From Candidatus Magasanikiibacteriota bacterium (GTDB lineage Bacteria; Patescibacteriota; Patescibacteriia; Magasanikbacterales; GWA2-37-8), in NCBI GenBank assembly GCA_036170335.1, contig JAVHOZ010000058.1:1-39452 (forward strand): a DNA stretch of 39,452 nucleotides, in the 5' to 3' direction. The notes below the pieces were generated by a model, which saw only the letters and a list, made by a program, of their open reading frames with translations, had not been told where the DNA came from and ran no database searches. Shown in pieces: positions 1-34,362 of this stretch (position 1 is its first letter; the number at the start of each line of letters is the position of its first letter). Position numbers and translations under genes: made by a program.

Positions 1-470
1 AAATAAATTAAAATTATTATTTGCATTCTTGTCATGTATACCATTGGTAAAATTTATTCCTTCTTGTTTGCCATCAACATAAAATTTTCCTTTTCTAGGA
101 TCACTATTATCAACTGTCACCGCTACAAAATGCCAATCGAAATCATTGTTATTAAAAATAGACCTCGTATTTGACTGTGAAAGAGCCCACCCAGAACCAA
201 ACAACAAATCATTTGCTGTTAAAGATGCTGTAGAAAGAAACTTTAAATTAACTATTTTTCCAGCGTCTTTTTTAATAAAGAAACTAAAATCCCTTTTGCC
301 TGTTGTGCCAGCATTGGTATCGTCTGCTTTGGTTATTATCGGATAAATTCCATCTACTGCTGTAGATTCAATCTTGATCCAAGTGGCAAATGTTATTTCA
401 TTTAAATTAAAACTCTGATTACTGTCGATTGTAAAATAATTAGAAGTACCATTAAAATACATTGCTTGTT
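1..470 (-). other. LamG / concanavalin-A-like lectin domain (Laminin_G_3-like), cut by the window edge
   Basis: Hand translation reads AMYFNGTSNYFTIDSNQSFNLNEITFATWIKIES...DWHFVAVTVDNSDPRKGKFYVDGKQ. This matches the LamG_3 pattern: F.G...Y..V......L......T..AW.K, then W.HVA.T.D, then LY.DG. Confidence 0.6.
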
Positions 471-3400
471 TTTTGCTGGCATCTGCTGATGTTGTGGTAG
501 CTGAACAGCCTGCACTTGCATTACCAGTACAATAAGCCTTCAAATCAGTAGAAGTAGCAAAATTTGGGATAGAAGATGTAGGATATTTTACCCACACATC
601 ATCAAATTTGTAGTAAACAATAGCCGATTGATTTTGCCATCGACATTGCTTGCAAATTCTCTGACCATTGGCACTGCCGATACTACATGTTTGGTTGCCA
701 TCACACTCTTCACCAAAATCAGATTGCACAAAACCATCTCCACAATAAGGTCCGGATTTTTGACAATCAAAAGAACAAGAATTATCAGCCGACAAACCAT
801 ATTTTTGCTTGTTAATAGCTAAGGTAATACATTTGCCTTGTTGACTTTGCCAAAGAGATGAATTTTTACAATCAACGTCTGTTAAACAAACTCTATTATC
901 ATTAACACCCCCCACACACCAACCATTATAATCTAGTGCTATATCACATACCTCATAAGTGGAGGAAACTATTTTGTTTCCACAAAATTCCTTCGCCAGG
1001 CCAGTGCAAGCACCATTGCAATGATTATATTTTCCATTGTTCAAAATTCCATCATCACACTTTTCTCCAATTTCAACTTTGCCGTTGCCACAATTGGCAA
1101 ATATACTACAAGTGGTAGTAACTGGGGTAGCTGACCATGTACAATCATTGGCACAAATAGTACCTTGTACCACAAAATTATTACAAGTAGATTGATTATT
1201 CCACACTACCGTACCTGGTGGATCACACTGCTCCCCTTTGTTCAAATTTATTTTTCCATCACCACATGTTCCCTGATTGATGGTAGTGATTTCATTTTTT
1301 TGATTACAAATACCATTTTGATCTATAAAATTAAAATGTTCTGGATTTTTTATCAAATCCTTAACCAGACTATCAAAATTAGTAATTACCAGCCCTGAAT
1401 CTTCCAAACGCAATTTTACCAAATAATCAGAAGCACTTTCGCCAGTGGAAGTGGCAATATAACGATAAGCCAAAGAATCATTGGCACAGGCAAAACTATA
1501 ACGCTTATCATCCGTACTCCAGCCGGTATTGGGATCGTGTAACACACAGGTTTCGGGTGGCACTAATTTTGAACAATCAGCATCACTGACACAAAATTTA
1601 CCAGTAGAAGACACGCAAGTGCCAGCAATACCAAGTTTGTTTATTGGATCAGCTGGAATAATACCACCAGTCGCATTTCCGAGTTTTGACCACGAAGGCC
1701 AAGTACTCACAGTCTGTCCAGACAAATAGGTACCTTCCTTGAGGTCGGGATAAGTACTTTGGTGGTTATTGTAATAACTAAACAGACTGTTATCGATACT
1801 ACCCATATCTTGAAGACGCGAGAAATTCCTCATTAATTTATCTTTTTGCGCTGAACATACTTCACCATTGCTACAATCAAAATCCGAAACACACTGATCG
1901 GTATCCCCTGGATTATTCATGTCTTTGCCACAATAACCATAGTTAGTTAGATTGATATTGAATTTCAAATTTTTTAATAAACTATCAAACACTTTCTTGG
2001 TTTCTGGATCGGCATTATCGCTAATGCTGAATAAATAAATATTGGTAAATAAATTACCATTTGGAATATTGTCAAAATTAAAAGCGCCAACATAAATATT
2101 ACTACCAACAGCTATCGCTTTATTACCATCAATCGGTGGCAAATCTTGAAAACCTTTTTCTGCAAATACATCATCCAGCCAATCACTTGGGGTTAGATGT
2201 TTTGGATTGGCGAGTACCTGGATACCAATCGCATCATTATTTTTATCGTTGGTAAATAAGAAGCGTTTAAAAGCTTTGCTATCTTGAAAAACATTACTAA
2301 TATTGCCAACACATTTTTGTTTAGTTTTAGATACATTTAGATCAGCTTCACCTCCATAACATACCACATTATTATGATTGCTTAACCAATTCATATAATC
2401 GGGCGAACCGGAACTAGGACAAGTCCATGCAGGGCAATATGCTGGTTGATTTTTACTATCTAAATAATATACAATTCCGTTTGGATCAGAATAACCACAT
2501 TTCATTGTATAATCATTAACATTATAAAATACCTTACCATTGCCAGCTGAAAATTGATTAACGTCTTTACAATCAGCGTCAATATCACAAGCATCATTAG
2601 TCAAATCACACACCCCAACACTTTTGACCTGCGCTTCACTTATTTGAACCGCTGGACGCAAATATGGCAGATCGTCTATCACACCAGTGTCACCATTGTC
2701 GGCACAATAATAAGTGCTAAAATTATAATATCCTTTGCCAACATTCGCAGGCGGTATGGCGGTATTGTTAAAGACATTGTCAGTCAAATTAAAACCATCA
2801 TTATTACCTATCTTATCCTCATAAGGAAAAATAATAGCCGGCTCAATTTGCCCAAGAACGAGCACTTCTTTTGGTGGCCAAGGATTCTCACACAAAAATA
2901 CGATGATGTGTGATTTACCAGTGCCGACTATACCCGTTTGATTGGTATATAAATTTTCAGTAATTACCGCTGACGCATGGACATCCACTTCCCCATTGTT
3001 ATTTTGTGGAATAACTACATTAATGAACAAAGAAGTGCTCGATATCAAAACATATGGGCTACTTTTTGGACCCCATTGATACTCCCAACCATAACCCTTC
3101 ACTGGTTGAATCATCTGACCAGAAGCAGCCACACCTTTGGCCACCAAAAAAACATTCTCATCAAGTTTAGAAAAATAATGTTGATCAGGGTCGATCATCA
3201 CTTTCTCGATTTCACAAATTTTGTCTCCCGTCTTAAATTTCCAATTAATTGCTTTGCCATCTGGCTTGCTTTCAATGCTTACACCCTGAACATTTTTAAT
3301 TCCTTTTTTCAAAATTACCACATAATCGGTTGACACAGCCAATGGATTTACCAAACCAAACAAAACTTTCGATCCACCTTTGTTATCTGGTACCACCTGC

Positions 3401-6400
3401 ACCTGACCAAGATCAGCTCCAGCGCACCAAGCATTTGCACTCACTTCATGACCAAACAAATTTTTTATCGCGATAATTATTTTGTTCCAAATATTTTTAT
3501 ACCATGGTAAAGAAGAATCAAATGGATCTAAAAATGAAATAGTACTACTCACATCTTCCAAACCACCGGTACAAGCGGAGGCGGCACTGCGAGCAATAAT
3601 AAAATTACCCGGTAGTGTAGCAGGATCAATCACACTATCAAAATCTGCTTCAATATAGGTATTGATACAAACATTTGTGGTATATTTGGCCGGGATAGTA
3701 CTAGTGTTACCAGGATAAACACCAGTTAATTTTGTTTTAAAATAACAACAAGAATTACCACCAACTCCAATATCTTTGTTTCCGGAATAAGCATTCTGAC
3801 ACTCTTCGTCGGTTTTATAGCCACACAATACTTTATATATACCAACTCCACTAATACCGGCCGCTGTACCTGTGATATCACTTACTTGCGCTGGGATGGT
3901 TGTACTAACTACGTTTTTAACTGAACCAGCCTGTCCGATAGCCAAAACCCAAGGGTCAACCAAAAGTCCACCAAGCGAATCTTTGTGCCAGAGATTGGTT
4001 AAATATTTATCAGTTTCACAATCAGCATCTTCGCCAATACCAGCTTTCCCATCACCACAAACTGATGGATCAGAATATAACAAAGAAGAACCAATATGTT
4101 GTAAGTTATCATTACAACCTTCTGCATCAACAGCACATTTTACACCATTGGTAACATCTGGTTTTGTTTTATCTATTTTCAAACAACGATCATTACACTC
4201 AGAAGCAACTTTGCCATCAGGCAAATCACAACCTACATCTTCATCTGGGCTTTGTACTCCATCACCACACTGACTATAAGCTTGACTACAGAAAAAATTA
4301 TAATCTTTTTGGTCAAAACCTCCATAAGCCGGATTGGCAGGGAGATTATTGTCAAAACACCATTTGGAAGATAATCTTGTACCAAAATGTAAACACTGCT
4401 CTGAACAATACATTGACGAAGTAGATACATTTTGATCAGCCGATACCCCTAAGTCACAATCTTCTCCCATTCCAATCATACTATTACCACAAATCGAAGC
4501 GCTAACTTCTTTGGCGGCAGTTTGCATTTTTGATCCAGTGTGCAAACATATATTACTACAACCAACACCGCTTTTTAGATCCTTAGGATCACACGCCTCA
4601 CCTTTTTTATTATCTACTGTGCCATCGCCGCAAGTGTTTTTATCCAAATTGCCCAAAAATTTACAGCTCAAACCACAACCGGTGGTTTTACTAGGACCGT
4701 CACAATCCTCACCCGCTTCTATTTTTCCATTGCCACAAATTGGATAGGCTGCAATTTTTGCCCCAGCTGGCACCGTACTGCCTTTTAAAATACAGTTAGC
4801 GGTACAATATGCACCCGATCCTTTGGTTATAAACGGTTTTACTTTGGCTATAAATTTATCATCAGAAGAAGTCCAATTCCAATTTTGAGTCCAAGGATTC
4901 AATTTTTGTCCAGTTTTACTACAAGCATCCGGAGCCGCATATGGCTGAGATTGAAACACTGCTAAATCTTTTAATTTTGAGGCAATAAATATCTTTGGCA
5001 CAACATCAATATGATCTACTTTACAAGCTTCCTTTTTGGTTCTAAATCTCCAAGTGAATACTTTGTTATATGGTTTGGAAAAAGTATCAAAATCTGTTGA
5101 GTTGGCCGCTGACCATAGCTGATCAATACTGTTTTTAGCAGGGGGTGTACTAGAGGCTGATAAAGTTACTTGATACAACTTATTTGGTAGCAGACCAGCA
5201 TCTGAACCATAGTTAGCAATCTGTAAAATTGTATTACCGGACACCTTATCATCAAATTTAATATTTGGTAGTTTGATAGGTTGACTAGTACTCAAACAAT
5301 TTTCATCATTACACTGTACCAACTTTATAGCTGGAGAATCTGGTCCAATATTATGATTAGACATCGTGACATTAAACTTGGCGCCGATAGCCGCATTGGT
5401 ACAAGCTTCCAAACAATTTGGCCAATAATCTACTACGTCCGGATTGGACAGATCAACTGTCAATGGACTACTGCCTGTTTTACTCACTTTAGGAACAGTA
5501 GATGTAGAAGCAGTGGCTTTTACATCTACACTTTCATTTGGCACTCCTATCCCGACAGTATTACCCAAAGTATTTACTTGAGTACTGATTTTATTATCTA
5601 CACCGTTGATAGTTACATATGGTTTTAAAGGATTTGGAGGATTTTTATTATCCACAATCCATTTCCAATCAAAACCAGATACATCCATCATTATACAATA
5701 TTGATCACTTAGACCGTTGCCTTTATAATAAACATCAAAAACATCTCCACCAACCGAATGATAACGCATTGGAGACTCTAATAATTTTGCCCAAAATTCA
5801 TAAGGAGTAACTACTACCTGTTTCAAAGCACAATCGCCTTTTCCAGTTTTAAAAGAAAAACAATAAGCAGTATCCGCGCCACATGGATTCGTGGCCATTA
5901 ATTTTAATATTTGCCCTTTATTGGCTGGAGCGGCAATACTGTCTGTCAAAACCACTTGATAAGTTGTACTAGCAGACCATTTTCCCGCATCAGATTTGAT
6001 AGACAAAGATTGTTGTAAATTCTGAGCCTGATTGAGACTAACGGGATTTAATTTAAAACTATCGTTAGTCAAAGTGATTTTTTGTGGTTTTTGACATACA
6101 CCTTTGATATCTATGCTATCACAAGAATTAACCAGCACAGTTTTGTTATTCACAGTCACAGGATTCAATTCAGAACTAAATTCAATAGTCACTAAAGCTG
6201 TTTGACAAACTTTGTCAGCATCATTTTTGCCAAGTATATTCCATTTGGTAGATGGAGACGGTGTCGGAATTTTTATTCCAGACTCAGTTTGCGCGTCACA
6301 ACGCTCTACAACTTGTGGTGGTGGAATAATGTCTTTGGTAGAAAACATCCAGACAAAACCACTATTTTTAAATTCTCCAATACACAAATTTTCTTTTGGT

Positions 6401-9081
6401 TTGCAAGCTCCCAATTCTGCTCCAGTGGTACAACATTTCAAACTAGCATCGGTACAGGTATTATTATTCTTTGTACAATCAGACGCTGAAAATAACATAC
6501 CGTTACTTTGTTTTTTATCCGTTGAACGATAGGCATAAGCCAAACCGGAAATAATATCTTTGCTGTTTGGAGTAGTGGTAACTGTTTTATCATCGATAAT
6601 AGAAACATTAGCACTAATTAATGTGTTAGTAATATCATCGGACTTTCCACCAAGTTTCCAAAAATAAAAACTGGTTACTTTATCTAAATACTCACCGGAG
6701 ACAGTTACAAATTTACCAACTGCAAATGGCACCGGACCAGACACTGGTGAAATTCCACAAATCCCCGGACTAGGATCACCGACATTTACCGTGACTGATT
6801 TGTCGTTGTCTAAAACACTATTTAGTTCATTGACTACATTATACACTTGAATAGTATATTTTTTGTTTGTATTGGCCAATCCAACTGGAACTTTTACTAC
6901 GATTTGATTGTCTTTCCAAAATGAATCTTTGCAGGCAACTGGAAAAACCAAATCACCAATTACATTCTCAGCATTTAAAATACCGATCGGTTTGAACCAC
7001 ACCACCCCCTGTTTTTCACCAAAATTTTTACCGGTGATAGTGAGATAATCACCAATAGTAGTTGTGGCTGGAGAGGAAATACTCGTTATAAACGGGGCAT
7101 CAGGATTTGATCCAGAAACTTGAAACAAAACTGTGTTGCTAAACTGACCATTGTTAGTTACCTTCACTCCGTAATCACCATTACCCAAAGTAACCGGCAC
7201 TACCGACGAAATCAGAGTATCGGCCCATCCCACTGCTCCACCAACGATTTTTGCTTTGGTATTATCACCAAAAATTACAGAACTCTTAACTATATCATAA
7301 GCACCAAAATTTTTACCTTTTACCGAAAATTTTGTACCAACTGATCCTTGATTTGGAGCCAAACCACAAATACCCGGATGAGAAATGTTGGATAAAACAA
7401 AATTTGGCACTTTTTTAAAACCATCACCGGTAGTATCAAAATATTTAACATTAAAATTGTCCAGACCAACCGCTTTTGTATTAAATACTGCTATTTTACT
7501 ACCATCAATCACACCATCTGGAACCAAGACAATAATCTGATTATCACTCCAATTATTAAAACCTGGGCCGCAATCTGCCACTTGTGCCTCTACCCAATCG
7601 GCTAGTACTTTTATATCAGGATTTTTAACCTTAGCAAAATAAACATGACCTTTGTTGGTACCAAAATTCTTGCCAACAACAGAAACAAAATCTCCAATTG
7701 CGGCGCTGGCTGGAGAAAAATCAGAAATATAAGTTTTGTCCACACAAATACCTTCTAGATCGTTAATATCTTTCTTTTGACAAAAACCACTAGCACAATC
7801 GGCATCTTTGGCACATTTGTCACCAGAACATATACCACATTCTCCACCACAATCAACAAACTTTTCACCTAGATTTTGATCTAAAACTTTATTAAAACAG
7901 TGTTCCGGTTTCAGGTTGGCGACAGAATTGTCCTCACCACTGTTGGCTGCAAAGTCCAACCCTATAGCTTTTAAAGAGTGGTCACCAATATTTAATTTAT
8001 TAGTTGGCCAAATAATTGTCGCCGTGCCGGATTTTTGACATTCAGTAAAATTTTTGTAAGTATCAACTAAAATATCATCGGCGTTCAAAATTAGATTTTG
8101 CAAACCACCATCATCAGTAAAATTGATTTTTACACTAATATCACTTCCTTGTTTCAAATCTACATCAGATATTTTTGGATATAAAATACTAATGGTAGGA
8201 TTCTTTCTATCTACCCCTTCACCGGTAATAAAAGTAACATCTGAACATTTACCAGTACTAAATAAACAATTTAAATCTTTACCATCAACACTTTTAATCC
8301 CCCCACTATTTTTTATTTTTATTTTATAGGTAGTAGTCGCGTCAAAACAATCTTTGCCAACATCTGGTGCCGGACAAGCTCCATTGGTAGGTTTGAAATA
8401 GGCAACTTTGTGCAAATTTGTCTGCCACGACCAATCACCTACTACCGGCACAGAAGTTAAAGCATTTTCTACTATAATATTATCTTTTAGAGTACTTACA
8501 TCCACATCCATATTGAACACTATCACTGGTGCCACATTTCGGATACAAACATTACCAGCAACTGGCGGTTGAATAATCTTAAATTTACCATCACAACTAC
8601 CATATGGACATGGTGGCACGACACAAGCTGGGCAATCTCCACCACAACTAGCTCCACCGGCATCTTTTTGAATCTTACACAGGGCATCACTGCTAACCGT
8701 TGTCGCCTCCACCAATTTATTCATTACAAAACTCACAATCGCATAAGATGACAAAACAATGACCAAACCAATCGTCGCATTAATTAATATTTTTTTAGCT
8801 GAGCCGACTTTTTCGTCATCACCACCAGCAGTCATCCAAAGGTAACCGGCATATAGCATCAAACCCAAAGCTACTATCCCTAGTAATTCCAAAGCTGCTC
8901 TGATAATTTTGGCAACGATAGTACGAATATCACCACTAGGCAAACCAGTTGCGGCCACTTCCTTCAGACCAACATCTAGAGATGTTTGAGCCTGAACCAA
9001 ATTATTAAATAACAAAAATCCAGTTACAAAAAATAACGAAAAAATTAAGAACAAAAATAATTTTTTATTTATAAATTTCAT
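1..9081 (-). CDS. giant secreted, membrane-anchored surface protein, 3'-partial (at least 3027 codons; C-terminus lies beyond window position 1)
   Basis: ATG at 9081-9079 overlaps the TGA of the upstream ORF (ATGA). Plus-strand triplets phased from position 1 contain no TTA/CTA/TCA in any block I hand-checked (1-660, 4981-5040, 7621-7740, 8701-9081). No stop-delimited minus-strand ORF in this frame appears in the track, as expected for an ORF that never reaches a stop inside the window. Hand translation starts MKFINKKLFLFLIFSLFFVTGFLLFNNLVQAQTSLDVGLKEVAATGLPSGDIRTIVAKIIRAALELLGIVALGLMLYAGYLWMTAGGDDEK and reaches DWHFVAVTVDNSDPRKGKFYVDGKQEGINFTNG at the window edge. Confidence 0.9.
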   Translation of the reverse strand, partial: MKFINKKLFLFLIFSLFFVTGFLLFNNLVQAQTSLDVGLKEVAATGLPSGDIRTIVAKIIRAALELLGIVALGLMLYAGYLWMTAGGDDEKVGSAKKILINATIGLVIVLSSYAIVSFVMNKLVEATTVSSDALCKIQKDAGGASCGGDCPACVVPPCPYGSCDGKFKIIQPPVAGNVCIRNVAPVIVFNMDVDVSTLKDNIIVENALTSVPVVGDWSWQTNLHKVAYFKPTNGACPAPDVGKDCFDATTTYKIKIKNSGGIKSVDGKDLNCLFSTGKCSDVTFITGEGVDRKNPTISILYPKISDVDLKQGSDISVKINFTDDGGLQNLILNADDILVDTYKNFTECQKSGTATIIWPTNKLNIGDHSLKAIGLDFAANSGEDNSVANLKPEHCFNKVLDQNLGEKFVDCGGECGICSGDKCAKDADCASGFCQKKDINDLEGICVDKTYISDFSPASAAIGDFVSVVGKNFGTNKGHVYFAKVKNPDIKVLADWVEAQVADCGPGFNNWSDNQIIVLVPDGVIDGSKIAVFNTKAVGLDNFNVKYFDTTGDGFKKVPNFVLSNISHPGICGLAPNQGSVGTKFSVKGKNFGAYDIVKSSVIFGDNTKAKIVGGAVGWADTLISSVVPVTLGNGDYGVKVTNNGQFSNTVLFQVSGSNPDAPFITSISSPATTTIGDYLTITGKNFGEKQGVVWFKPIGILNAENVIGDLVFPVACKDSFWKDNQIVVKVPVGLANTNKKYTIQVYNVVNELNSVLDNDKSVTVNVGDPSPGICGISPVSGPVPFAVGKFVTVSGEYLDKVTSFYFWKLGGKSDDITNTLISANVSIIDDKTVTTTPNSKDIISGLAYAYRSTDKKQSNGMLFSASDCTKNNNTCTDASLKCCTTGAELGACKPKENLCIGEFKNSGFVWMFSTKDIIPPPQVVERCDAQTESGIKIPTPSPSTKWNILGKNDADKVCQTALVTIEFSSELNPVTVNNKTVLVNSCDSIDIKGVCQKPQKITLTNDSFKLNPVSLNQAQNLQQSLSIKSDAGKWSASTTYQVVLTDSIAAPANKGQILKLMATNPCGADTAYCFSFKTGKGDCALKQVVVTPYEFWAKLLESPMRYHSVGGDVFDVYYKGNGLSDQYCIMMDVSGFDWKWIVDNKNPPNPLKPYVTINGVDNKISTQVNTLGNTVGIGVPNESVDVKATASTSTVPKVSKTGSSPLTVDLSNPDVVDYWPNCLEACTNAAIGAKFNVTMSNHNIGPDSPAIKLVQCNDENCLSTSQPIKLPNIKFDDKVSGNTILQIANYGSDAGLLPNKLYQVTLSASSTPPAKNSIDQLWSAANSTDFDTFSKPYNKVFTWRFRTKKEACKVDHIDVVPKIFIASKLKDLAVFQSQPYAAPDACSKTGQKLNPWTQNWNWTSSDDKFIAKVKPFITKGSGAYCTANCILKGSTVPAGAKIAAYPICGNGKIEAGEDCDGPSKTTGCGLSCKFLGNLDKNTCGDGTVDNKKGEACDPKDLKSGVGCSNICLHTGSKMQTAAKEVSASICGNSMIGMGEDCDLGVSADQNVSTSSMYCSEQCLHFGTRLSSKWCFDNNLPANPAYGGFDQKDYNFFCSQAYSQCGDGVQSPDEDVGCDLPDGKVASECNDRCLKIDKTKPDVTNGVKCAVDAEGCNDNLQHIGSSLLYSDPSVCGDGKAGIGEDADCETDKYLTNLWHKDSLGGLLVDPWVLAIGQAGSVKNVVSTTIPAQVSDITGTAAGISGVGIYKVLCGYKTDEECQNAYSGNKDIGVGGNSCCYFKTKLTGVYPGNTSTIPAKYTTNVCINTYIEADFDSVIDPATLPGNFIIARSAASACTGGLEDVSSTISFLDPFDSSLPWYKNIWNKIIIAIKNLFGHEVSANAWCAGADLGQVQVVPDNKGGSKVLFGLVNPLAVSTDYVVILKKGIKNVQGVSIESKPDGKAINWKFKTGDKICEIEKVMIDPDQHYFSKLDENVFLVAKGVAASGQMIQPVKGYGWEYQWGPKSSPYVLISSTSLFINVVIPQNNNGEVDVHASAVITENLYTNQTGIVGTGKSHIIVFLCENPWPPKEVLVLGQIEPAIIFPYEDKIGNNDGFNLTDNVFNNTAIPPANVGKGYYNFSTYYCADNGDTGVIDDLPYLRPAVQISEAQVKSVGVCDLTNDACDIDADCKDVNQFSAGNGKVFYNVNDYTMKCGYSDPNGIVYYLDSKNQPAYCPAWTCPSSGSPDYMNWLSNHNNVVCYGGEADLNVSKTKQKCVGNISNVFQDSKAFKRFLFTNDKNNDAIGIQVLANPKHLTPSDWLDDVFAEKGFQDLPPIDGNKAIAVGSNIYVGAFNFDNIPNGNLFTNIYLFSISDNADPETKKVFDSLLKNLKFNINLTNYGYCGKDMNNPGDTDQCVSDFDCSNGEVCSAQKDKLMRNFSRLQDMGSIDNSLFSYYNNHQSTYPDLKEGTYLSGQTVSTWPSWSKLGNATGGIIPADPINKLGIAGTCVSSTGKFCVSDADCSKLVPPETCVLHDPNTGWSTDDKRYSFACANDSLAYRYIATSTGESASDYLVKLRLEDSGLVITNFDSLVKDLIKNPEHFNFIDQNGICNQKNEITTINQGTCGDGKINLNKGEQCDPPGTVVWNNQSTCNNFVVQGTICANDCTWSATPVTTTCSIFANCGNGKVEIGEKCDDGILNNGKYNHCNGACTGLAKEFCGNKIVSSTYEVCDIALDYNGWCVGGVNDNRVCLTDVDCKNSSLWQSQQGKCITLAINKQKYGLSADNSCSFDCQKSGPYCGDGFVQSDFGEECDGNQTCSIGSANGQRICKQCRWQNQSAIVYYKFDDVWVKYPTSSIPNFATSTDLKAYCTGNASAGCSATTTSADASKKQAMYFNGTSNYFTIDSNQSFNLNEITFATWIKIESTAVDGIYPIITKADDTNAGTTGKRDFSFFIKKDAGKIVNLKFLSTASLTANDLLFGSGWALSQSNTRSIFNNNDFDWHFVAVTVDNSDPRKGKFYVDGKQEGINFTNGIHDKNANNNFNLF
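700..1275 (-). repeat. second cluster of three CG[DN]G...GE.CD cysteine-rich repeats
   Basis: Translated motifs are TCGDGKINLNKGEQCDPPG, NCGNGKVEIGEKCDDG and YCGDGFVQSDFGEECDGN. Confidence 0.6.
4018..4740 (-). repeat. cluster of five Cys-rich CG[DN]G...GE.CD repeats (DUF4215 / Myxococcus cysteine-rich-repeat-like)
   Basis: Translated motifs are ICGNGKIEAGEDCDGP, TCGDGTVDNKKGEACDP, ICGNSMIGMGEDCDLG, QCGDGVQSPDEDVGCDL and VCGDGKAGIGEDADCE. Confidence 0.6.
6540..7750 (-). repeat. four tandem IPT/TIG-like Ig-fold repeats inside the giant protein
   Basis: Hand translation gives four modules: YISDFSPASAAIGDFVSVVGKNFGTNKGHVYF, ICGLAPNQGSVGTKFSVKGKNFG, ITSISSPATTTIGDYLTITGKNFGEKQGVVWF and ICGISPVSGPVPFAVGKFVTVSGEYL. 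They follow the I.SISP..G..G..VTI.G.NFG...V.F pattern of IPT/TIG domains. Confidence 0.55.
8710..9081 (-). other. N-terminal module of the giant protein: signal peptide (VQA/QT) plus VirB2/TrbC-like (T4SS-pilin-like) two-helix membrane hairpin
   Basis: Two hydrophobic helices (LELLGIVALGLMLYAGYLW and ILINATIGLVIVLSSYAIVSFV) flank a short charged loop (MTAGGDDEKVGSAKK). From memory, this is the pattern of TrbC/VirB2 and Pfam T4SS_pilin proteins. It is near-identical in layout to the N-terminus of the neighbouring 693-aa ORF. Confidence 0.6.
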
Positions 9082-11159
9082 GGTAACGGATTATTTGCTT
9101 TAATATCAACAAAACAATTTTCTATTCCATCTTTGGCAGTAGTAACCTTTCCATTGCAACAAAATTCACTGCCTATCTTATTTTCAACACCACAACAATT
9201 CATTTTTAATAAAGGATCAGACAAATCACAAACTTTTGAATCTAATTTTTCTTTTGATACCAAATCCTTTGGCCCCACACCCGGATAAAAACAGTTAAAA
9301 TGCGCATCCTCCACACTGGAACTAACTATCGGAATATACATTTGTTTTTTATCATCCAAAAATGGACCATGGAGGATGTCGAAAGTCTGATAATCCATAT
9401 GTACAAAAGGAACTTTCCATAACGAATCACCAACAGGAACTGGATATTCTTCTATACTTATAAAATAAGCAGACTCACCTCGCATACGTTTACTAAAATA
9501 CAAACTTAGTTTGGCGTCTTTTGGCACATTTTGACCATTTACTCCCGGAGTGATAGTCATTATATATGGAGAAACAGCATCGATTGCATCTTTTATTTGA
9601 AAATTCCAAAAATAATTATCCGGCTCTTTCCATTTGTCAAAAACCGGCAAAGTGGTAGTAGCGGTTTGAGCTTTTCCATCCGGTTGACCATCTAGCTTCA
9701 CACTGTTTCCATCCAAGGCATTTCCAGACATATCGGCTATTCCACTAAACGGGATACTTTCAAAAGTGTTTGGCAAAGTTTTGGCAGCTTCTAATAACAT
9801 CTGATAATTATCAAACAAATGTTTTTCAGCATCAGCTTGGCAGTTGGCACCCGGTTTGTCACAGACAGGCAAACAATAAATCGGATAACCACAAGCATTT
9901 TTGCCACACTCTTTGCTCGGAGTAAATTCTAATGTCTGATAATTATTTATTAAGCTAAAACTTCCAATCGGTACAGTACTGCTTGGAGCATCAGAAAATA
10001 TTTTATTTCCAGTTAAAGCATAATAAGTTTTGGCTCCAAAAGCGGTAGCACCAAAAACACCTTGCACACCGGAAGGATCCATCGGCTCGCTAAAAGAAAT
10101 TTGGATTACTGAATTTTTGTATTCAACCTTATCCTTGCCTGGGAACACATCAACCACATGTGGAGGTGCGGTATCCAATAATGTACTACAAGTAAACTGC
10201 CAAATGTATAAAGGAGGGTTTTGATTTTGAAAAATTGAAGGATTGTTGTTGGTAACATCATCAGCTAAAATACCACTTCCCAAATGCACAATATAAGATA
10301 CTAAATCACTGGTATTTCCCAAATAACCACCTTCACCGTCGGTGATTGGTTTTAATACAATCGTATAAACTCCGGTAATATTATTTACTGTACTAGTAGC
10401 AGCAGTAATAATCAACGCTTTGATAGATTGACCATTGTCCGCTTGAGAAACATTGATAAATTTATCTGATAATTTACCAAGTGTTGAGGTGACATGATCA
10501 CAATTATTAAACCAATTAAAATTGGCCTTATCGGTATTTATGCAATCGCCAAAGGTGCCATTACCGTTGAAATCATCGACAAAGCTGGACAATAAAATAG
10601 GTTTGGCAAAAGTAATGACGATCTTGGTATTGCGTGGTACATCTTTCTGGTTGCGAGCGGGATAATGATCTTTGATGACCTTTCCCAACGCACCACTACC
10701 AGAAAAATTTTGCGCACCCGGGGCATAGACAGCAGAATTGGTACCACCGCCATCTCCCACTCCCAATATTTTCATAATATATGAAACAATACTAAAAGCA
10801 CTCAAAATAATCGCCAAACCAATGGTCGCATTGCGGAGAATATTTTTGGCTTGAGTGATCTGTTCGTCATTGCCACCGGCTGTCATCCAAAGATAACCGG
10901 CATATAACATCAAACAAACCACAACAATCCCAAGCAAACCAAGCGCACCGCGAATAATGCGAGCAATAATCAAACGAATATCAATAGAGGCCAAACCTAA
11001 CGGTTGTTCAACAACTTTTAAACCCTGCAACACTTGACCGTTTGGATCAGCTACGCTTTGAGCAGAAGCGGTCTGAAAAACAAAAAAAACCGCTACTAAG
11101 ATAAGCCCTAGTATAGTAGCGGTTTTTAAAAATCTATTTTTTGATAACCATTGAAGCAT
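9078..11159 (-). CDS. secreted pilin-module-anchored surface protein with SbsA/Big_5-like Ig domains and a Cys-rich C-terminus; paralog of the giant protein N-terminus
   Basis: 693-aa ORF with signal peptide (ASA/QS). It then reads IDIRLIIARIIRGALGLLGIVVVCLMLYAGYLWMTAGGNDEQITQAKNILRNATIGLAIILSAFSIVSYIM, which aligns residue-for-residue with the giant ORF N-terminus. PHVVDVFPGKDKVEYKNSVIQISFSEPMDPSGV and ITPGVNGQNVPKDAKLSLYFSKRM look like Big_5 starts. The TGA overlaps the downstream ATG. Confidence 0.8.
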   Translation of the reverse strand: MLQWLSKNRFLKTATILGLILVAVFFVFQTASAQSVADPNGQVLQGLKVVEQPLGLASIDIRLIIARIIRGALGLLGIVVVCLMLYAGYLWMTAGGNDEQITQAKNILRNATIGLAIILSAFSIVSYIMKILGVGDGGGTNSAVYAPGAQNFSGSGALGKVIKDHYPARNQKDVPRNTKIVITFAKPILLSSFVDDFNGNGTFGDCINTDKANFNWFNNCDHVTSTLGKLSDKFINVSQADNGQSIKALIITAATSTVNNITGVYTIVLKPITDGEGGYLGNTSDLVSYIVHLGSGILADDVTNNNPSIFQNQNPPLYIWQFTCSTLLDTAPPHVVDVFPGKDKVEYKNSVIQISFSEPMDPSGVQGVFGATAFGAKTYYALTGNKIFSDAPSSTVPIGSFSLINNYQTLEFTPSKECGKNACGYPIYCLPVCDKPGANCQADAEKHLFDNYQMLLEAAKTLPNTFESIPFSGIADMSGNALDGNSVKLDGQPDGKAQTATTTLPVFDKWKEPDNYFWNFQIKDAIDAVSPYIMTITPGVNGQNVPKDAKLSLYFSKRMRGESAYFISIEEYPVPVGDSLWKVPFVHMDYQTFDILHGPFLDDKKQMYIPIVSSSVEDAHFNCFYPGVGPKDLVSKEKLDSKVCDLSDPLLKMNCCGVENKIGSEFCCNGKVTTAKDGIENCFVDIKANNPLP
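10761..11159 (-). other. signal peptide plus VirB2/TrbC-like pilin module of the 693-aa protein
   Basis: Same two-helix hairpin with a GG(N/D)DE loop as at 8710..9081. Confidence 0.6.
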
Positions 11160-13529: not shown

Positions 13530-13551
13530 AATTTATTTTTTGTTAGCTGTT

Positions 13552-13580
13552 ATAATACTATATTTTTTTACTTTTGGCAA
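13552..13580 (-). promoter_or_regulatory. sigma70-like promoter for lepB-hisS (TTGCCA-17-TATTAT)
   Basis: Minus-strand TTGCCA at 13580-13575 and TATTAT at 13557-13552, with a 17-nt spacer. It sits just downstream of the tRNA terminator. Confidence 0.45.
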
Positions 13581-13584
13581 ATTT

Positions 13585-13611
13585 AAAAATCCCGAAATAA
13601 ACGGGATTTTG
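13585..13611 (-). terminator. rho-independent terminator after tRNA-Tyr
   Basis: AAAATCCCG(13586-13594)/CGGGATTTT(13602-13610) hairpin, followed on the minus strand by a U-run. Confidence 0.6.
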
Positions 13612-13877
13612 TGGGCAGAGAAGGATTCGAACCTTCGAAGGCGGAGCCAACAGATTTCACTTATCCATAAGTTTCCTTACAGCATGGACTATATCTTTAC
13701 CCGCGAAGGGTACTCTGGTATCTAGTCTCTACGGCGCTCCCCGAACATTTCGGAGTTCCCACGGTATTAGCATCTCCCAGAGCCTTCACCGTTATCCCAG
13801 AGAGTTCATCCTGGAGTTTCCCCCAAGAGCTGCAATTGTTCACAGTCTGTCCCATTTAACCACTTTGGTATCTGCCC
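13612..13877 (-). tRNA. tRNA-Tyr(GUA), type II (long variable arm), interrupted by a 184-nt group I intron; CCA not encoded
   Basis: The joined exons give GGGCAGA TA CCA AAGTGGTTAAA TGG G ACAGA CTGTAAA TCTGT TGGCTCCGCCTTC GAAGG TTCGAAT CCTTC TCTGCCC A (82 nt). This has the same segment lengths as E. coli tRNA-Tyr (from memory), and shares AGACTGTAAATCTG and CTTCGAAGGTTCGAATCCTTC with it. Discriminator is A73. Confidence 0.9.
13658..13841 (-). ncRNA. group I intron (IC3-like, ORF-less) in the tRNA-Tyr anticodon loop between U35 and A36
   Basis: The 5' exon ends in U, and exon CUGU pairs with intron GCAG (P1, U-G wobble at the splice site). The intron ends in G. Core elements are GTAGAGACTAGA (J6/7-P7, identical to the Azoarcus intron as I recall it), a TACCC-TTCGC-GGGTA hairpin (P8), GGGTAAAGATATAGTCC (compare Anabaena GGGUAAAGAGAGAGUCC), and P7 GACTA/TAGTC complementarity. 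Confidence 0.85.
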
Positions 13878-13882
13878 AATTG

Positions 13883-14206
13883 TTATATTTTTAAAAAACT
13901 TTTTGCTAAATTAATATTTTTTTCTTGTTTATTTTTCGACGCTGTTAGTCGTAAATTAATACAGCTTTTATTGATATGTTTAACCGGTATATAATAAATA
14001 TTTTTTGAAATAATATCTACTGCCGCCAAAATTTCAAAATCTTTCTTTGAATAATTTATTACATCCCAATTATTAGACGACCGACAATTAATGATCATCA
14101 CACCATTCTTGGGTACAACGGTTTTAACTTGCACCCTTTTCATCTTACCGTTTTTTTCGATTATCAAATCATATTGAGTGTTTTCGCTAATCGGAAACGA
14201 AACCAT
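13883..14206 (-). CDS. PD-(D/E)xK homing-endonuclease-like protein (I-Ssp6803I / PDDEXK_5-like). The ATG-initiated part is given here; the family N-terminus continues upstream to 14275 across an in-frame TGA
   Basis: 107-aa ORF reading VSFPISENTQYDLIIEKNGKMKRVQVKT...DFEILAAVDIISKNIYYIPV. This fits the recalled family pattern (YDLI..(n)..R/KVQVKT, then ...YIIP). Upstream and in the same frame is MHTKIKGDIGELLVAADLLEKG-TGA-MVSFP (14275..14207), which matches the family N-terminal helix KGD..E..V...L...G. Confidence 0.65.
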   Translation of the reverse strand: MVSFPISENTQYDLIIEKNGKMKRVQVKTVVPKNGVMIINCRSSNNWDVINYSKKDFEILAAVDIISKNIYYIPVKHINKSCINLRLTASKNKQEKNINLAKSFLKI

Positions 14207-14290
14207 TCATCCTTTTTCTAAAAGATCTGCGGCTACTAACAATTCCCCTATGTCCCCCTTAATTTTAGTATGCATAACTTGTAAAAAAAG

Positions 14291-14363
14291 AGCCGGGAAC
14301 AGGACTCGAACCTGCGACCCGCACTTTACAAAAGTGCTGCTCTACCAACTGAGCTAACCCGGC
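14291..14363 (-). tRNA. tRNA-Thr(UGU)
   Basis: GCCGGGT TA GCTC AGTTGGTA GAGC A GCACT TTTGTAA AGTGC GGGTC GCAGG TTCGAGT CCTGT TCCCGGC T. 73-nt cloverleaf with one U-U mismatch at 7:66. Confidence 0.9.
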
Positions 14364-14380
14364 ATATATAATATACCCAG

Positions 14381-14453
14381 AGCCGTTATCGGGAATCGAA
14401 CCCGAGACCTTTTCCTTACCATGGAAATGCTCTACCAACTGAGCTACAACGGC
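14381..14453 (-). tRNA. tRNA-Thr(GGU)
   Basis: GCCGTTG TA GCTC AGTTGGTA GAGC A TTTCC ATGGTAA GGAAA AGGTC TCGGG TTCGATT CCCGA TAACGGC T. 73-nt cloverleaf. Confidence 0.9.
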
Positions 14454-14458
14454 GTTAT

Positions 14459-15358
14459 TTATATTTTATCAATACGACCCTTGAAATCAGCTAGCTTTGA
14501 ATTTTCCGGATTTACTAAACGTAAATTTTGGTAAGCTTGGGTGGCCAATTTATTATCTTGACATAGTATAGCAGTTTCTATCAGTAAGTCAAGATACTTT
14601 GGATTTTGTGGTTCGAGTTCTACCGCCTGTAAAATAGCCTCTTTGGCTACCAACGGTTGACTTACTTTCAAAAGCAATTCCGCTAGATGAGCAAAGCGTG
14701 GCGACAGTGAATCGTTGGCCACCACTGCACGTTGATAGTACTCTATTGCTTCATCGATATTATTTTGCGCCTCAGCCATTTCCGCCAACCGCACCATAAC
14801 CGCGTCATTTTCCGGTTCCAACTGCAACAAAAACATAAAAGTCTGTTTGGCCTCTTCGGTAGAATTTTTCTTAATGTACACTTCAGCTAAACCACGATAA
14901 GCCGACGCCGCTTTTACATTCATTTTAATAGCAGAGATAAAAGCGTGTTCAGCTTGATCTAAATTGTCCAATTGTAAGTTTTGTTCACCTTCTTGTATTA
15001 AACTATTTAGCTTGTTTTCTTTTTCTTCTACCGTCAACAAACTTTGTTCAGCTTTAGTTTTAACCATTTCTTCGTGATGAATCAAACGTTCAATCTTGCC
15101 AACATATATCCTAAACTTCAACTGGAACCGGCGCCATATTTTGTCTATAGGGCGCAATTTTGCACCAAGTTTGGCGCGTGTTTCCTTAGTGTGAGTTTCA
15201 ATTCTTTTGGTAATAATCTCATATTTTTTGCGTGAAGTTTTTTCCTGTGGCAAACTATCCACATCCAAATTGGATAGCTGTGGGGTTTTTTTCCAAATAA
15301 CAAAAACAATTACCCCAAGACAAACCAGCACTACTAATAAAAACAGGATATTAAACAT
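14459..15358 (-). CDS. membrane-anchored tetratricopeptide (TPR) repeat protein
   Basis: N-terminal TM helix (FNILFLLVVLVCLGVIVFVIW), then TPR-like helical repeats (AEHAFISAIKMNVKAASAYRGLAEVYIK..., IDEAIEYYQRAVVAND...). Start trimmed to ATG 15358 to avoid overlap with tpiA. Confidence 0.7.
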   Translation of the reverse strand: MFNILFLLVVLVCLGVIVFVIWKKTPQLSNLDVDSLPQEKTSRKKYEIITKRIETHTKETRAKLGAKLRPIDKIWRRFQLKFRIYVGKIERLIHHEEMVKTKAEQSLLTVEEKENKLNSLIQEGEQNLQLDNLDQAEHAFISAIKMNVKAASAYRGLAEVYIKKNSTEEAKQTFMFLLQLEPENDAVMVRLAEMAEAQNNIDEAIEYYQRAVVANDSLSPRFAHLAELLLKVSQPLVAKEAILQAVELEPQNPKYLDLLIETAILCQDNKLATQAYQNLRLVNPENSKLADFKGRIDKI

Positions 15359-33662: not shown

Positions 33663-34181
33663 TTAAGCTTTTGCTTCTTTAATATTATTAAGAACATTTA
33701 CTAAACCGCGCAAATTGCCGGCAAGCACATTGACAAAGCCAGAGATTGGCGCATTGAGAGTACCAACCAATTGACCGAGTAATTGTTGTTTGCTTGGCAA
33801 GCTGGCCAAATTCATCACCGCTGCAGTATTGATAAATTTACCTTCGAGCACACCACCGTAAACACTTACGGATTCGTGAGTTTTAGCAAATTCACTAACA
33901 ATTTTAGCAGCCGAAATTTCATCCGGACCAGACAAGGTAACGATACCGCCGATGAAAGCTTTTGGATCGGCAGTTACACCTAAATCCTCAAACACTCTTT
34001 TTACCAAAGTTTTTTTGGCTACTTGCACCTGAACTTTTTCTGCTCTAGCTTGTTTGCGTAAAGCTTCAAAATCCAATACCTTTAAACCAGTAAAATTGGC
34101 AAAAACAGCGCCTTTACTTTCTTTCAAACCACCAGTCAAAGACTCAATAGTTTGTATTTTTTGTTGTCTTGTTTTTGGCAT
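33663..34181 (-). CDS. rplJ: 50S ribosomal protein L10
   Basis: 172 aa, immediately upstream of rplL. Contains FTGLKVLDFEALRKQARAEKVQVQVAKKTL. Confidence 0.9.
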   Translation of the reverse strand: MPKTRQQKIQTIESLTGGLKESKGAVFANFTGLKVLDFEALRKQARAEKVQVQVAKKTLVKRVFEDLGVTADPKAFIGGIVTLSGPDEISAAKIVSEFAKTHESVSVYGGVLEGKFINTAAVMNLASLPSKQQLLGQLVGTLNAPISGFVNVLAGNLRGLVNVLNNIKEAKA

Positions 34182-34246
34182 AATCTTTTAACAAAAAAAT
34201 CTGTGTTTCCACAGACAAATTATACAGTACAAATCGACTCTTACCT

Positions 34247-34271
34247 TGTCATTCCCGCGAAAGTGGGAATC
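34247..34271. repeat. single unit of the GTCATTCCCGCGAAAGCGGGAATC repeat family in the rplJ 5' leader
   Basis: TGTCATTCCCGCGAAAGTGGGAATCT. The stem ATTCCCGC/GTGGGAAT closes a GAAA loop. Confidence 0.7.
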
Positions 34272-34333
34272 TAAGCATTTTGTACCTCGGCAGGTAATTA
34301 AGGCTTGCGCCTCCTGCTATCTATGGTGCGGAT

Positions 34334-34362
34334 ATGATAATGGATTAGGAAAGTTTTGTCAA
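34334..34362 (-). promoter_or_regulatory. sigma70-like promoter of the rplJ-rplL operon (TTGACA-17-TATCAT), followed by a leader of about 150 nt
   Basis: Minus-strand TTGACA at 34362-57 and TATCAT at 34339-34, with a 17-nt spacer. The leader (34182-34330) is structured and could be an L10-leader autoregulatory element, but I did not verify this. Confidence 0.5.

Follow-up and report, generated by a model that had tools for sequence, protein, structure and literature searches.

A compact group I intron in the tRNA-Tyr gene of a Magasanikbacteria genome and its relatives across Patescibacteria

Background

How can a tRNA-Tyr gene be functional if its anticodon is divided by 184 nucleotides (nt), and how did these nucleotides get there? 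The question is raised by the minus strand of positions 13612-13877 in contig JAVHOZ010000058.1 of Candidatus Magasanikiibacteriota bacterium (assembly GCA_036170335.1), of which the whole analysed stretch, 39,452 nt in length, is referred to below as the window. An earlier note, made from the letters of the window, had described the locus as a tRNA-Tyr(GUA) gene split between tRNA positions 35 and 36 by a compact group I intron. This description has been borne out by a match to the Rfam model of group I introns, by recognition of the spliced exons as a tRNA and by covariation among 61 sequences, and we regard it as very nearly certain that the locus contains a real group I intron in a tRNA-Tyr gene. 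It is highly likely that the whole constitutes a functional tRNA-Tyr(GUA) gene with an intron that is devoid of an open reading frame (ORF) and exhibits the architecture of small tRNA introns such as that of Azoarcus; with equal or slightly lower confidence, the intron may be expected from its sequence to splice in vivo.

To date, the hosts named for group I introns in bacterial tRNA genes have been tRNA-Leu(UAA), tRNA-fMet, tRNA-Ile2(CAU) and tRNA-Arg, in cyanobacteria and proteobacteria (a 2014 tRNA review, a 2014 review of bacterial group I introns and the tRNAscan-SE 2.0 paper), which agrees with the earlier note in placing tRNA-Tyr outside the classical hosts. Work on introns of the candidate phyla radiation (CPR) concerns rRNA genes, and the word 'tRNA' occurs nowhere in PMC11270868. 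A bacterial tRNA-Tyr group I intron is not described in the searchable full-text literature, which leaves many subscription papers outside. The intron sequences themselves are already public, and intron-bearing tRNAs of CPR bacteria have been noticed in passing by at least one group. In circularised CPR genomes, tRNA sets were found to be complete only once tRNAs bearing group I introns were counted (PMC8172020), an observation that fits introns in tRNA genes that are the only ones for their amino acid; tRNA-Tyr is not named there. What is presented below is a well-known kind of element in a new host tRNA, at a new position (35/36) and in a new phylum, and the family to which it belongs is apparently undescribed.

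An interrupted tRNA-Tyr gene

As read from the sequence, the tRNA-Tyr(GUA) gene is interrupted between U35 and A36 and consists of three parts:

13842..13877, minus strand: 5' exon of tRNA-Tyr, 36 nt (GGGCAGAUACCAAAGUGGUUAAAUGGGACAGACUGU), tRNA positions 1-35, with the acceptor strand, the D arm, the 5' anticodon stem and C32 U33 G34 U35, ending in ...CUGU
13658..13841, minus strand: group I intron without an ORF, 184 nt, beginning with GAACAAUUGCAG and ending in ...AAGUG, the terminal G (omega-G) being 13658
13612..13657, minus strand: 3' exon of tRNA-Tyr, 46 nt (AAAUCUGUUGGCUCCGCCUUCGAAGGUUCGAAUCCUUCUCUGCCCA), beginning with AAAUCUGU, from A36 through the 3' anticodon stem, the long variable arm, the T arm and the acceptor strand to A73; CCA is not encoded

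The joined exons form a type II tRNA, which ARAGORN calls tRNA-Tyr(GUA) and which possesses the characteristics of a bacterial tRNA-Tyr, i.e. the GUA anticodon, the long variable arm, the G1-C72 pair and A73. The exon coordinates given by the earlier note (13877-13842 and 13657-13612) and its 82-nt type II product were found exactly so, and the product has counterparts among intact genes: a metagenome scan for the uninterrupted form of the window tRNA-Tyr identified four contigs (L120-L123), to which the spliced sequence is identical in 82/82 positions (L120 and L122), 81/82 (L123) and 80/82 (L121).

The Rfam model RF00028 (Intron_gpI), by which the earlier note had expected the intron to be recognisable, matches 13665-13868 on the minus strand over its full length (model positions 1-253) with 50.3 bits and E = 5e-12, in a search of the region 13550-13950 (401 nt) with laxer filters. 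In addition, the core pattern AGACTARA..AGATATAGTC..GAAAT was seen at a single place in the window and not at all in 100 dinucleotide shuffles, hence the resemblance to a group I core is not due to chance.

The intron family in Patescibacteria

The window intron is not a one-off. The pattern AGACTARA-N(10-40)-AGATATAGTC-N(15-45)-GAAAT was scanned over 185,579 species-representative genomes, which revealed at least 119 loci, and a script was used to assign to the family those with the arrangement CTGT|intron|AAAT and flanks able to form a 5-bp anticodon stem. Among the matches listed, 60 of the 119 loci fall into this class, so that the tRNA-Tyr genes of at least 60 other species-level genomes are cut by the same intron at the same site; ARAGORN recognised tRNA-Tyr(GUA) in 57 of the 60 relatives after splicing. 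The hosts are almost all metagenome-assembled genomes (MAGs) of Patescibacteria, including Magasanik-, Moranii-, Sacchari-, Peri-, Doudna-, Yanofsky-, Lipton- and Lloydbacteria and others. The exons diverge widely between lineages, but G1, A73 and the long variable arm are kept in 61/61 members (the window included). The nearest introns among the matches listed are those of L085 (96% identity), L094 and L062 (94.6% each) and L056 (92%), the labelled ones belonging to Magasanikbacteria, to which the window is therefore assigned as well.

The length of the introns, among the matches listed, ranges from 182 to 237 nt with a median of 201. The earlier note had stressed the small size of the window intron, and at 184 nt it is indeed shorter than the Azoarcus intron (about 205 nt); it is not the smallest of its own family, however, as one Saccharibacteria member (L065) is 182 nt long. 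The window intron lies 17 nt below the family median mainly by virtue of P5 (19 vs 28 nt) and the segment from the 3' strand of P3 to P8 (20 vs 26 nt).

Several observations on individual records may be added. Introns in tRNA-Tyr were also found in records titled "uncultured Gammaproteobacteria bacterium" (L008, L022, L057, L070, L085, L098, L103, L105 and L113), several of which share the order tRNA-Thr(GGU), tRNA-Thr(UGU), ORF, tRNA-Tyr with the window, and one of which (L085) carries the intron that is 96% identical to that of the window; these taxonomic labels are probably wrong. In L086, a Patescibacteria MAG, the intron is kept, but a T arm can no longer be recognised in the 3' exon and ARAGORN detects no tRNA, hence it may be a decayed copy. 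Brute-force splicing of the remaining 59 pattern matches followed by ARAGORN gave a junction-spanning tRNA for three (L054, L089 and L110), and of 18 of these 59 that were compared with Rfam, seven lie within 23S rRNA genes, most with intron matches inside. L089 (~7168-7452, plus strand; a MAG labelled as Gammaproteobacteria) has a tRNA with CAU anticodon and a group I intron of ~214 nt (RF00028, 59.6 bits). In an Omnitrophota MAG (L053:4849-6404), six RF00028 matches above the gathering score are arranged head to tail in 1.6 kb, and a Sediminibacterium record (L003) contains two strong ones (1965-2265 and 4032-4308). Two cyanobacterial matches (L116 and L117) were considered as tRNA-Leu comparators and dismissed, as they are not tRNA introns. 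A phage origin was likewise considered and rejected: 21 IMG/VR contigs contain the core pattern, and they yielded one CTGT...AAAT candidate, the spliced product of which is not called a tRNA.

Consensus structure and covariation

The 61 precursor segments (the window and 60 relatives) were aligned with plain MAFFT and folded with RNAalifold without prior input; the invariant P7 pseudoknot was then added to the consensus by hand, and a pair involving the terminal G was taken out. RNAalifold recovered the anticodon stem, P1, P2, P3, P4, P5, P6/P6a, P8, P9 and P9.0. In the proposed structure, standard pairs occupy 97.5% of cells, as compared to 32-42% if the 3' partners are slid by 1-3 columns; changes on both sides are seen in 32 of 57 pairs (11-17 in the slid controls), the covariation score is 0.42 (0.05-0.11 in the slid controls), and none of 500 shuffles attained the observed pairing values. 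In the window, the elements are located as follows:

13830..13845, minus strand: P1 hairpin, in which C32-U35 and the intron base G+1 (13845-13841) pair with UGCAG (13834-13830), the 5' splice site being marked by U35•G
13809..13828, minus strand: P2, 8 bp (13828-13821 with 13816-13809), GAAA tetraloop at 13817-13820; 8/8 pairs compensatory
13797..13802 with 13713-13718, minus strand: P3, CUCUGG/CCAGAG; 4/6 pairs compensatory, 100% of cells paired
13733..13792, minus strand: P4-P5-P6 domain, from the consensus fold, the pair counts and the helix map
13787-13792 with 13761-13766, minus strand: P4, from the helix map
13770-13783, minus strand: P5, a shortened (minimal) hairpin, from the helix map
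13733-13760, minus strand: P6/P6a, from the helix map
13723-13727 with 13687-13691, minus strand: P7, GACUA/UAGUC, invariant in 61/61 and situated where conservation in the RF00028 alignment is highest
13713..13727, minus strand: segment with the 5' strand of P7, J7/3 and the 3' strand of P3
13698..13712, minus strand: P8, UACCC/GGGUA, 5 bp with a 5-nt loop; 4/5 pairs compensatory
within 13658..13697, minus strand: J8/7, AAGAUA, read from the sequence
13684-13685 with 13659-13660, minus strand: P9.0, 2 bp, directly before the terminal G 13658
13665-13682, minus strand: P9, 7 bp with a GAAA loop; 6/7 pairs compensatory

P3, P4, P5, P6 and P8 each display changes on both sides. The anticodon stem is paired in 100% of cells, and three of its five pairs covary with the host tRNA. 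The P1 pairing CUGU/GCAG with its U•G pair at the splice site, proposed by the earlier note, turned out to be invariant in 61/61 sequences, of which the filter used to select the family had imposed CUGU alone, and the first base of the intron covaries with the base 5' of GCAG (AU 29, CG 14, GU 14, GC 3). The outer Y-R pair of P9.0 covaries as well (CG 26, UA 20, UG 12, AU 3). The P7 strands, the P8 hairpin and the terminal G named in the earlier note are all present and are backed by the comparison with the 60 homologues. The architecture is that of small tRNA introns: a GNRA loop closes the single P2, GAAA closes P9, and large peripheral domains are absent. When the window intron is folded by itself, the structure of minimum energy contains P2-P6, P8 and P9.

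P5 contains a GAAA receptor motif of the 11-nt type, SCUAAR...YAUGS, in 33 of the 61 members. The GAAA loops of P2 and P9 would probably dock on P8 and P5, respectively.

The splice junction: tRNA-Tyr or tRNA-Ser

The pentamer GUGAA is repeated at both junctions, an ambiguity that the earlier note had passed over, and therefore splicing 2 nt upstream (CU|...AAG|UGAAA) would also leave a U before the 5' site and a G at the end of the intron. The product would then be tRNA-Ser(UGA) with the intron between U33 and U34, and this is precisely what ARAGORN reports with the option -i, both for the window locus (tRNA-Ser(tga) with a 184-nt intron) and for many of the homologues. Nevertheless, several features of the family speak against the serine reading. 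It offers no guide pairing to ...GACU, whereas the CUGU/GCAG helix with its U•G pair never varies; the covariation of P9.0 places the terminal G at 13658; in relatives that end in ...AUG|AAAU, an intron of the serine type would terminate in A; and the discriminator is A73 in all 61 members, A73 being an identity element of tRNA-Tyr and not of tRNA-Ser. Moreover, the intron-less alleles read CUGUAAAUC, which corresponds to the tyrosine junction in 82/82 positions. We have therefore rejected tRNA-Ser(UGA), to which we assign a vanishingly small probability. With the 5' site fixed by the invariant U•G pair of P1 and the 3' site by the covariation of P9.0, the junction between U35 and A36 given by the earlier note is correct.

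Predicted splicing and its possible dependence on a cofactor

The tRNA-Tyr gene is the last of a small cluster with the following features:

14565..14592, minus strand: promoter-like site (TTGACT, 16 nt, TG-TATACT; consensus match, 10/12), located inside the 3'-terminal part of the TPR gene, ahead of the tRNA cluster
14381..14453, minus strand: tRNA-Thr(GGU), the first tRNA gene of the cluster
14291..14363, minus strand: tRNA-Thr(UGU), with the endonuclease frame beginning 15 nt downstream
13883..14206, minus strand: ORF of a PD-(D/E)XK endonuclease of the I-Ssp6803I family (PF11645), 107 codons, with its stop 5 nt before tRNA-Tyr
13586..13610, minus strand: terminator-like hairpin, AAAAUCCCG...CGGGAUUUU, with a U-rich stretch (UAAAUUU) behind it, read from the sequence, immediately 3' of tRNA-Tyr

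The promoter-like hexamers are also visible in L122 and L123. The hairpin surfaced in the Rfam search as a weak match to the rimP leader as well, and it is not among the predictions of a consensus terminator scan.

Since the U•G pair, the guide, the P3/P7 pseudoknot, the conserved J6/7-J8/7-P7 strings, P9.0 and the terminal G are all present, canonical splicing is to be expected, and we infer its catalytic steps as follows. The two tRNA-Thr genes, the endonuclease ORF and tRNA-Tyr would be transcribed as a cluster. In the precursor, the anticodon stem would stay paired, while P1 would arise from pairing of the guide UGCAG with C32-U35 and the base that opens the intron, so that the U35•G wobble comes to lie where the 5' cut is made. 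The intron would fold into P1-P2, P3-P8, P4-P6, P7 and P9, the window copy being short on account of its trimmed P5 and P8. A free guanosine bound in P7 would attack after U35, upon which the terminal G (13658), held by the 2-bp P9.0, would take over the G site; the 3'-OH of U35 would then attack after the terminal G and join U35 to A36, a step in which a 2-bp P10 may help, as UU 13835-13834 could pair with A36 A37 of the second exon (AA/UU). The 7-nt anticodon loop CUGUAAA would thereby be restored.

Several points weigh against a functional, self-splicing intron. The whole-window Rfam scan with default filters and the gathering threshold missed it, and the RF00028 score barely attains the curated gathering score of 50. 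P7 and much of the core never vary and thus contribute zero covariation evidence, and the folding-energy z-score of -1.6 is unremarkable and uninformative. The GAAA receptor motif is absent from P5 of the window (GCUCUGGGAGAUGC) and of its nearest relatives (184-190 nt), hence one stabilising contact may be missing in this clade and splicing may need a cofactor. The putative assignment to subgroup IC3 relies on a resemblance to the Azoarcus intron. Self-splicing of the window intron and of the other members of the family is a prediction from sequence, and the content of tRNA-Tyr genes is known for the window contig alone: there is no other tRNA-Tyr gene within the 39,452-nt window, but a second, intact one may exist elsewhere in the genome.

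From some of these points an alternative can be built, in which the intron is decayed, residing in a pseudogene that is backed by another tRNA-Tyr, or splices only with the aid of a maturase or RNA chaperone acting in trans. It would account for the loss of the P5 receptor and the minimal P5 and P8 in the window clade as well as for the borderline model score; at least one member of the family (L086, see above) does have a degenerate 3' exon, and a gene for a protein of about 200 amino acids (aa) with a helix-turn-helix (HTH), discussed below, is glued to the intron-bearing tRNA-Tyr in 8/8 sampled clusters, which fits a splicing cofactor as well as an endonuclease. However, all helices of the window copy are intact and every core position that is invariant in the family is kept; its exons are identical to those of intact genes, with no sign of pseudogene decay; and the intron is retained in the window although the gene for the 200-aa protein is not there. 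Furthermore, seven members of the short clade (184-190 nt) from different genomes have accumulated compensatory changes in P2 and in P9 that leave the fold intact, which indicates continued selection for structure. We thus regard a decayed or cofactor-dependent intron as improbable, and a functional gene with a splicing intron as the preferred explanation.

The failure of the default scan, together with that of ARAGORN run without intron handling, which found no tRNA at this locus of the window and just the two upstream tRNA-Thr genes, could also be taken to mean that the intron is simply absent. This interpretation was rejected: the negatives are caused by the Rfam filters and by the blindness of ARAGORN to introns, and both programs succeed once given laxer filters or spliced input.

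Gain or loss among close relatives

The four intron-less alleles are syntenic with the window (TPR gene, tRNA-Thr(GGU), tRNA-Thr(UGU), tRNA-Tyr), with spacers of 7-20 nt between tRNA-Thr(UGU) and tRNA-Tyr. One of them, L123, is closer to the window in the flanking genes (TIM 88%, TPR 85% identity) than the intron-bearing L062 (79% and 77%), yet it has neither the intron nor an upstream ORF, whereas L062 has both. Gain or loss of the intron must therefore have taken place within this circle of close relatives. Divergence of exons and introns is moderately correlated (Spearman 0.37), which fits a mixture of vertical and horizontal descent without being decisive. The intron is thus optional, having been gained or lost recently, and it has no endonuclease of its own.

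Between the window and L062, identity amounts to 91% from tRNA-Thr(UGU) to the end of tRNA-Tyr, and homology ends exactly at the 3' end of tRNA-Tyr (breakpoint at window 13611 / L062:2956). On the 3' side of this breakpoint, the window has genes for a signal peptidase and HisRS, and L062 has a tRNA-Trp ~1 kb downstream; in L120-L123, L126 and L131 an L33 gene is located there, in most of them together with tRNA-Trp.

The upstream PD-(D/E)XK endonuclease gene

The earlier note was silent on the ORF that ends 5 nt upstream of tRNA-Tyr. This ORF is free-standing, i.e. it lies outside the intron, between tRNA-Thr(UGU) and tRNA-Tyr. It matches PF11645 with E = 2.9e-19 and 69.9 bits (cut-off 26.1; profile positions 25-135 of 138), and its best match in the PDB, a weak one (E = 0.37), is 2OST, which we take to be I-Ssp6803I, the endonuclease of a tRNA-fMet intron that cuts the anticodon stem-loop. 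It is 89% identical to the intact 130-aa protein of L062 (96 bits with PF11645, full length), a homologue that bears the NCBI name 'group I intron-associated PD-(D/E)XK endonuclease'. In the window, the frame is broken:

14207..14275, minus strand: cut-off N-terminal part of the endonuclease frame, with an ATG at 14273-14275, MHTKIKGDIGELLVAADLLEKG and an in-frame TGA at 14207-14209

This TGA stands where L062 has TGG (Trp23), and TGA ends 3 of the 23 long ORFs in the window, so that it acts as a stop codon in this organism. Judging from the reading frame, the window gene is a nonsense mutant, or would at best encode an N-terminally truncated protein.

It is tempting to regard the intron and this gene as one mobile unit, in which the enzyme would cut intron-less tRNA-Tyr, the intron would protect the site, and both would be copied. 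The close proximity of the ORF to the interrupted gene, its membership in the family of I-Ssp6803I and the 91% identity of the segment from tRNA-Thr(UGU) to tRNA-Tyr, embedded in flanks of 77-79% and ending at the 3' end of tRNA-Tyr, are all in line with such a unit, as is the absence of the endonuclease gene from all four intron-less alleles. So is the fact that at least five unrelated kinds of ORF, four of them of nuclease type, fill the slot beside intron-bearing tRNA-Tyr genes (see below). However, when homologues of the endonuclease were sampled irrespective of the intron, seven distinct contexts were obtained, in all of which the gene begins ~15-26 nt after tRNA-Thr(UGU):

L126-L128: endonuclease gene followed by an uninterrupted tRNA-Tyr
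L124/L125 and L129: tRNA-Thr(UGU), endonuclease gene and tRNA-Thr(GGU) in this order, an uninterrupted tRNA-Tyr being located upstream in the cluster
L130, L062, L115 and the window: intron present

The intron is thus present in four of the seven contexts, and in the other three the endonuclease homologue is found beside or near an intron-less tRNA-Tyr. The prediction of collaborative homing, that the gene should occur solely beside intron-containing alleles, fails for this family, and the idea that the gene is the intron's own homing endonuclease is weakened accordingly. Its constant neighbour is tRNA-Thr(UGU), the allele of which is 100% identical between the window and L062 but only 79% identical (a 21% difference), with a different anticodon stem, in relatives that are nearer in their flanks. 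An anticodon stem of the form xCACU/AGUGx is seen in 5/6 of the Thr(UGU) alleles linked to the endonuclease as compared to ~5/47 elsewhere; the linked allele has GCACU/AGUGC, the common one ACGGU/ACCGU. This pattern looks like co-conversion of flanking markers by a free-standing homing endonuclease. Together with the premature stop in the window copy, these facts make it doubtful that the adjacent endonuclease mobilises the intron, and a single mobile unit is equally unlikely. We read the PD-(D/E)XK gene as a free-standing gene of homing type tied to tRNA-Thr(UGU), with which the intron has at most been co-converted.

The upstream slot in other genomes

An ORF is found in the slot upstream of tRNA-Tyr in 41 of the 61 intron-bearing loci:

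34 loci: family of ~200 aa with an N-terminal HTH and a LMLYYGEGAKTG...FANSD...RFYLYCF domain; no Pfam match
3 loci: PF11645 ORFs (Pfam)
2 loci: ORFs with NUMOD3/zinc-finger and PD-(D/E)XK-like parts
1 locus: HNH ORF (phrog_1271, E = 4e-18)
1 locus: canonical LAGLIDADG ORF (E = 7e-14)

The ORFs of L065 (HNH) and of L024 and L039 (PD-(D/E)XK-like) have in common an N-terminal module, M-x-YGFY-x-S..YK..QS, with cysteine pairs and a weak NUMOD3 match; the same DNA-binding head appears to have been joined to two catalytic tails.

The predominant 200-aa family, examples of which are the proteins encoded in L094 (~216-830, minus strand), L056, L105, L131 (1501-2109) and L137 (1501-2109), comprises 1134 sequence clusters at E <= 1e-10 and is devoid of Pfam domains. 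In 8/8 clusters sampled regardless of the intron, an intron-containing tRNA-Tyr is located just a few bases downstream of the gene; the prediction of collaborative homing thus holds for this family in the clusters sampled. The window contains no copy of the gene. The protein combines its N-terminal HTH with an alpha/beta domain, and an AlphaFold model of it is confident (predicted local distance difference test, pLDDT, 92.8). A fold search of the PDB with this model gave nothing at E <= 1e-3, and the matches in BFVD are weak, several being to phage endonuclease or LAGLIDADG proteins; a profile search of the PDB matched only the N-terminal HTH. The motif LMLYYGEG in the ORF prompted the idea of a LAGLIDADG enzyme, for which hhalign gave a probability of 47% against the LAGLIDADG ORF of L098 and no match against I-CreI, the latter comparison being an approximate one. 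The protein is a candidate endonuclease, maturase or regulator.

Tentatively, one can picture a mobile element of two parts, the tRNA-Tyr intron and, as its usual partner, the 200-aa HTH protein, which together would have spread through Patescibacteria. The protein might then be an intron-specific maturase or belong to a novel class of free-standing homing endonucleases, and in the window a PD-(D/E)XK endonuclease, now decayed, would have taken its place. As a separate conjecture of the same standing, the clade of 182-190 nt, which lacks the P5 tetraloop receptor, could comprise the smallest natural self-splicing group I ribozymes.

Other features of the window

Away from the tRNA cluster, a single ORF of at least 3030 codons occupies 1-9090 on the minus strand and runs off the start of the window; its N-terminus resembles a signal peptide, and the product has the appearance of a giant surface protein. 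The ORF adjoins a gene for a T4SS-pilin/Big_5 protein at 9078-11159. An ordinary ribosomal protein L10 leader (RF00557, 56.8 bits) is present at 34185-34344 (minus strand), upstream of the L10 gene at 33663-34181.

Relation to known introns and homing systems

Among the closest known analogues of the window intron is that of Azoarcus tRNA-Ile2, which likewise is free of ORFs, resides in the anticodon loop of a bacterial tRNA and forms P1 from loop bases ending in a U•G pair. In both, a single P2 ends in a GNRA loop and P9 in a GAAA loop, extensions of the P2.1/P9.1 type being absent, and both belong to the same Rfam family; presumably, the core strings GUAGAGACUAGA are common to the two as well, and their J8/7-P7 segments are closely alike. 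The differences concern the host tRNA (Tyr instead of Ile2), the insertion site (after the second rather than the third anticodon base) and the host phylum (Patescibacteria instead of Betaproteobacteria). The window intron is ~20 nt shorter and its P5 is without the 11-nt receptor, which in Azoarcus is carried by P5 and accepts the GAAA loop of L9; its self-splicing is a prediction, in contrast to that of Azoarcus.

With the introns of tRNA-Leu, the window intron shares the location of a group I element in the anticodon loop with the anticodon stem retained under P1, and also, according to PMC4033280 and PMC5733544, a sporadic presence or absence among related genomes; the latter quotes Paquin 1997 and Rudi & Jakobsen on this point. 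The host tRNA, the position and the phylum are different, the comparison being one of descriptions and not of sequences.

As to the nucleases, the ORF of the window and I-Ssp6803I (2OST) of the tRNA-fMet intron of Synechocystis PCC 6803 fall into the same Pfam family, PF11645, and both are associated with an intron-bearing tRNA gene. The window gene, in contrast, lies outside and upstream of the intron, is truncated by a stop codon, and in its family follows tRNA-Thr(UGU) even where tRNA-Tyr is intron-less. An endonuclease gene beside an ORF-less intron or within a tRNA cluster is also known from T4 MobE/I-TevIII, T4 SegB and the collaborative homing of Aeh1 and cyanophages (PMC2790892, PMC2330249, PMC3984707); MobE of T4, for instance, moves the I-TevIII intron by co-conversion (PMC2790892). 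As with the free-standing endonucleases of phages, flanking markers appear to travel along with the window gene, as exemplified by the Thr(UGU) allele (100% vs 79%). Unlike those systems, however, the window belongs to a cellular genome, and no member of the intron family was found in the IMG/VR contigs; and the rule of collaborative homing, that the gene never stands beside an intron-less allele, is broken by the PD-(D/E)XK family of the window.

Conclusions

With the intron described here, the host range of bacterial tRNA introns is extended to tRNA-Tyr, to an insertion point at 35/36 and to an entire phylum, where the intron is common. Patescibacteria usually keep one gene per tRNA, and under such conditions all decoding of tyrosine would hinge on an RNA-catalysed step. 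As default ARAGORN and Rfam runs overlook the gene, many genomes of Patescibacteria will seem to be without tRNA-Tyr, to the detriment of completeness estimates and tRNA censuses. The clade of 182-190 nt, if active, would provide natural scaffolds smaller than the Azoarcus ribozyme for studies of RNA folding and of the origin of life. Finally, the spacer between tRNA-Thr(UGU) and tRNA-Tyr, occupied by several unrelated nuclease genes, constitutes a natural system for studying how free-standing endonucleases meet ORF-less introns.

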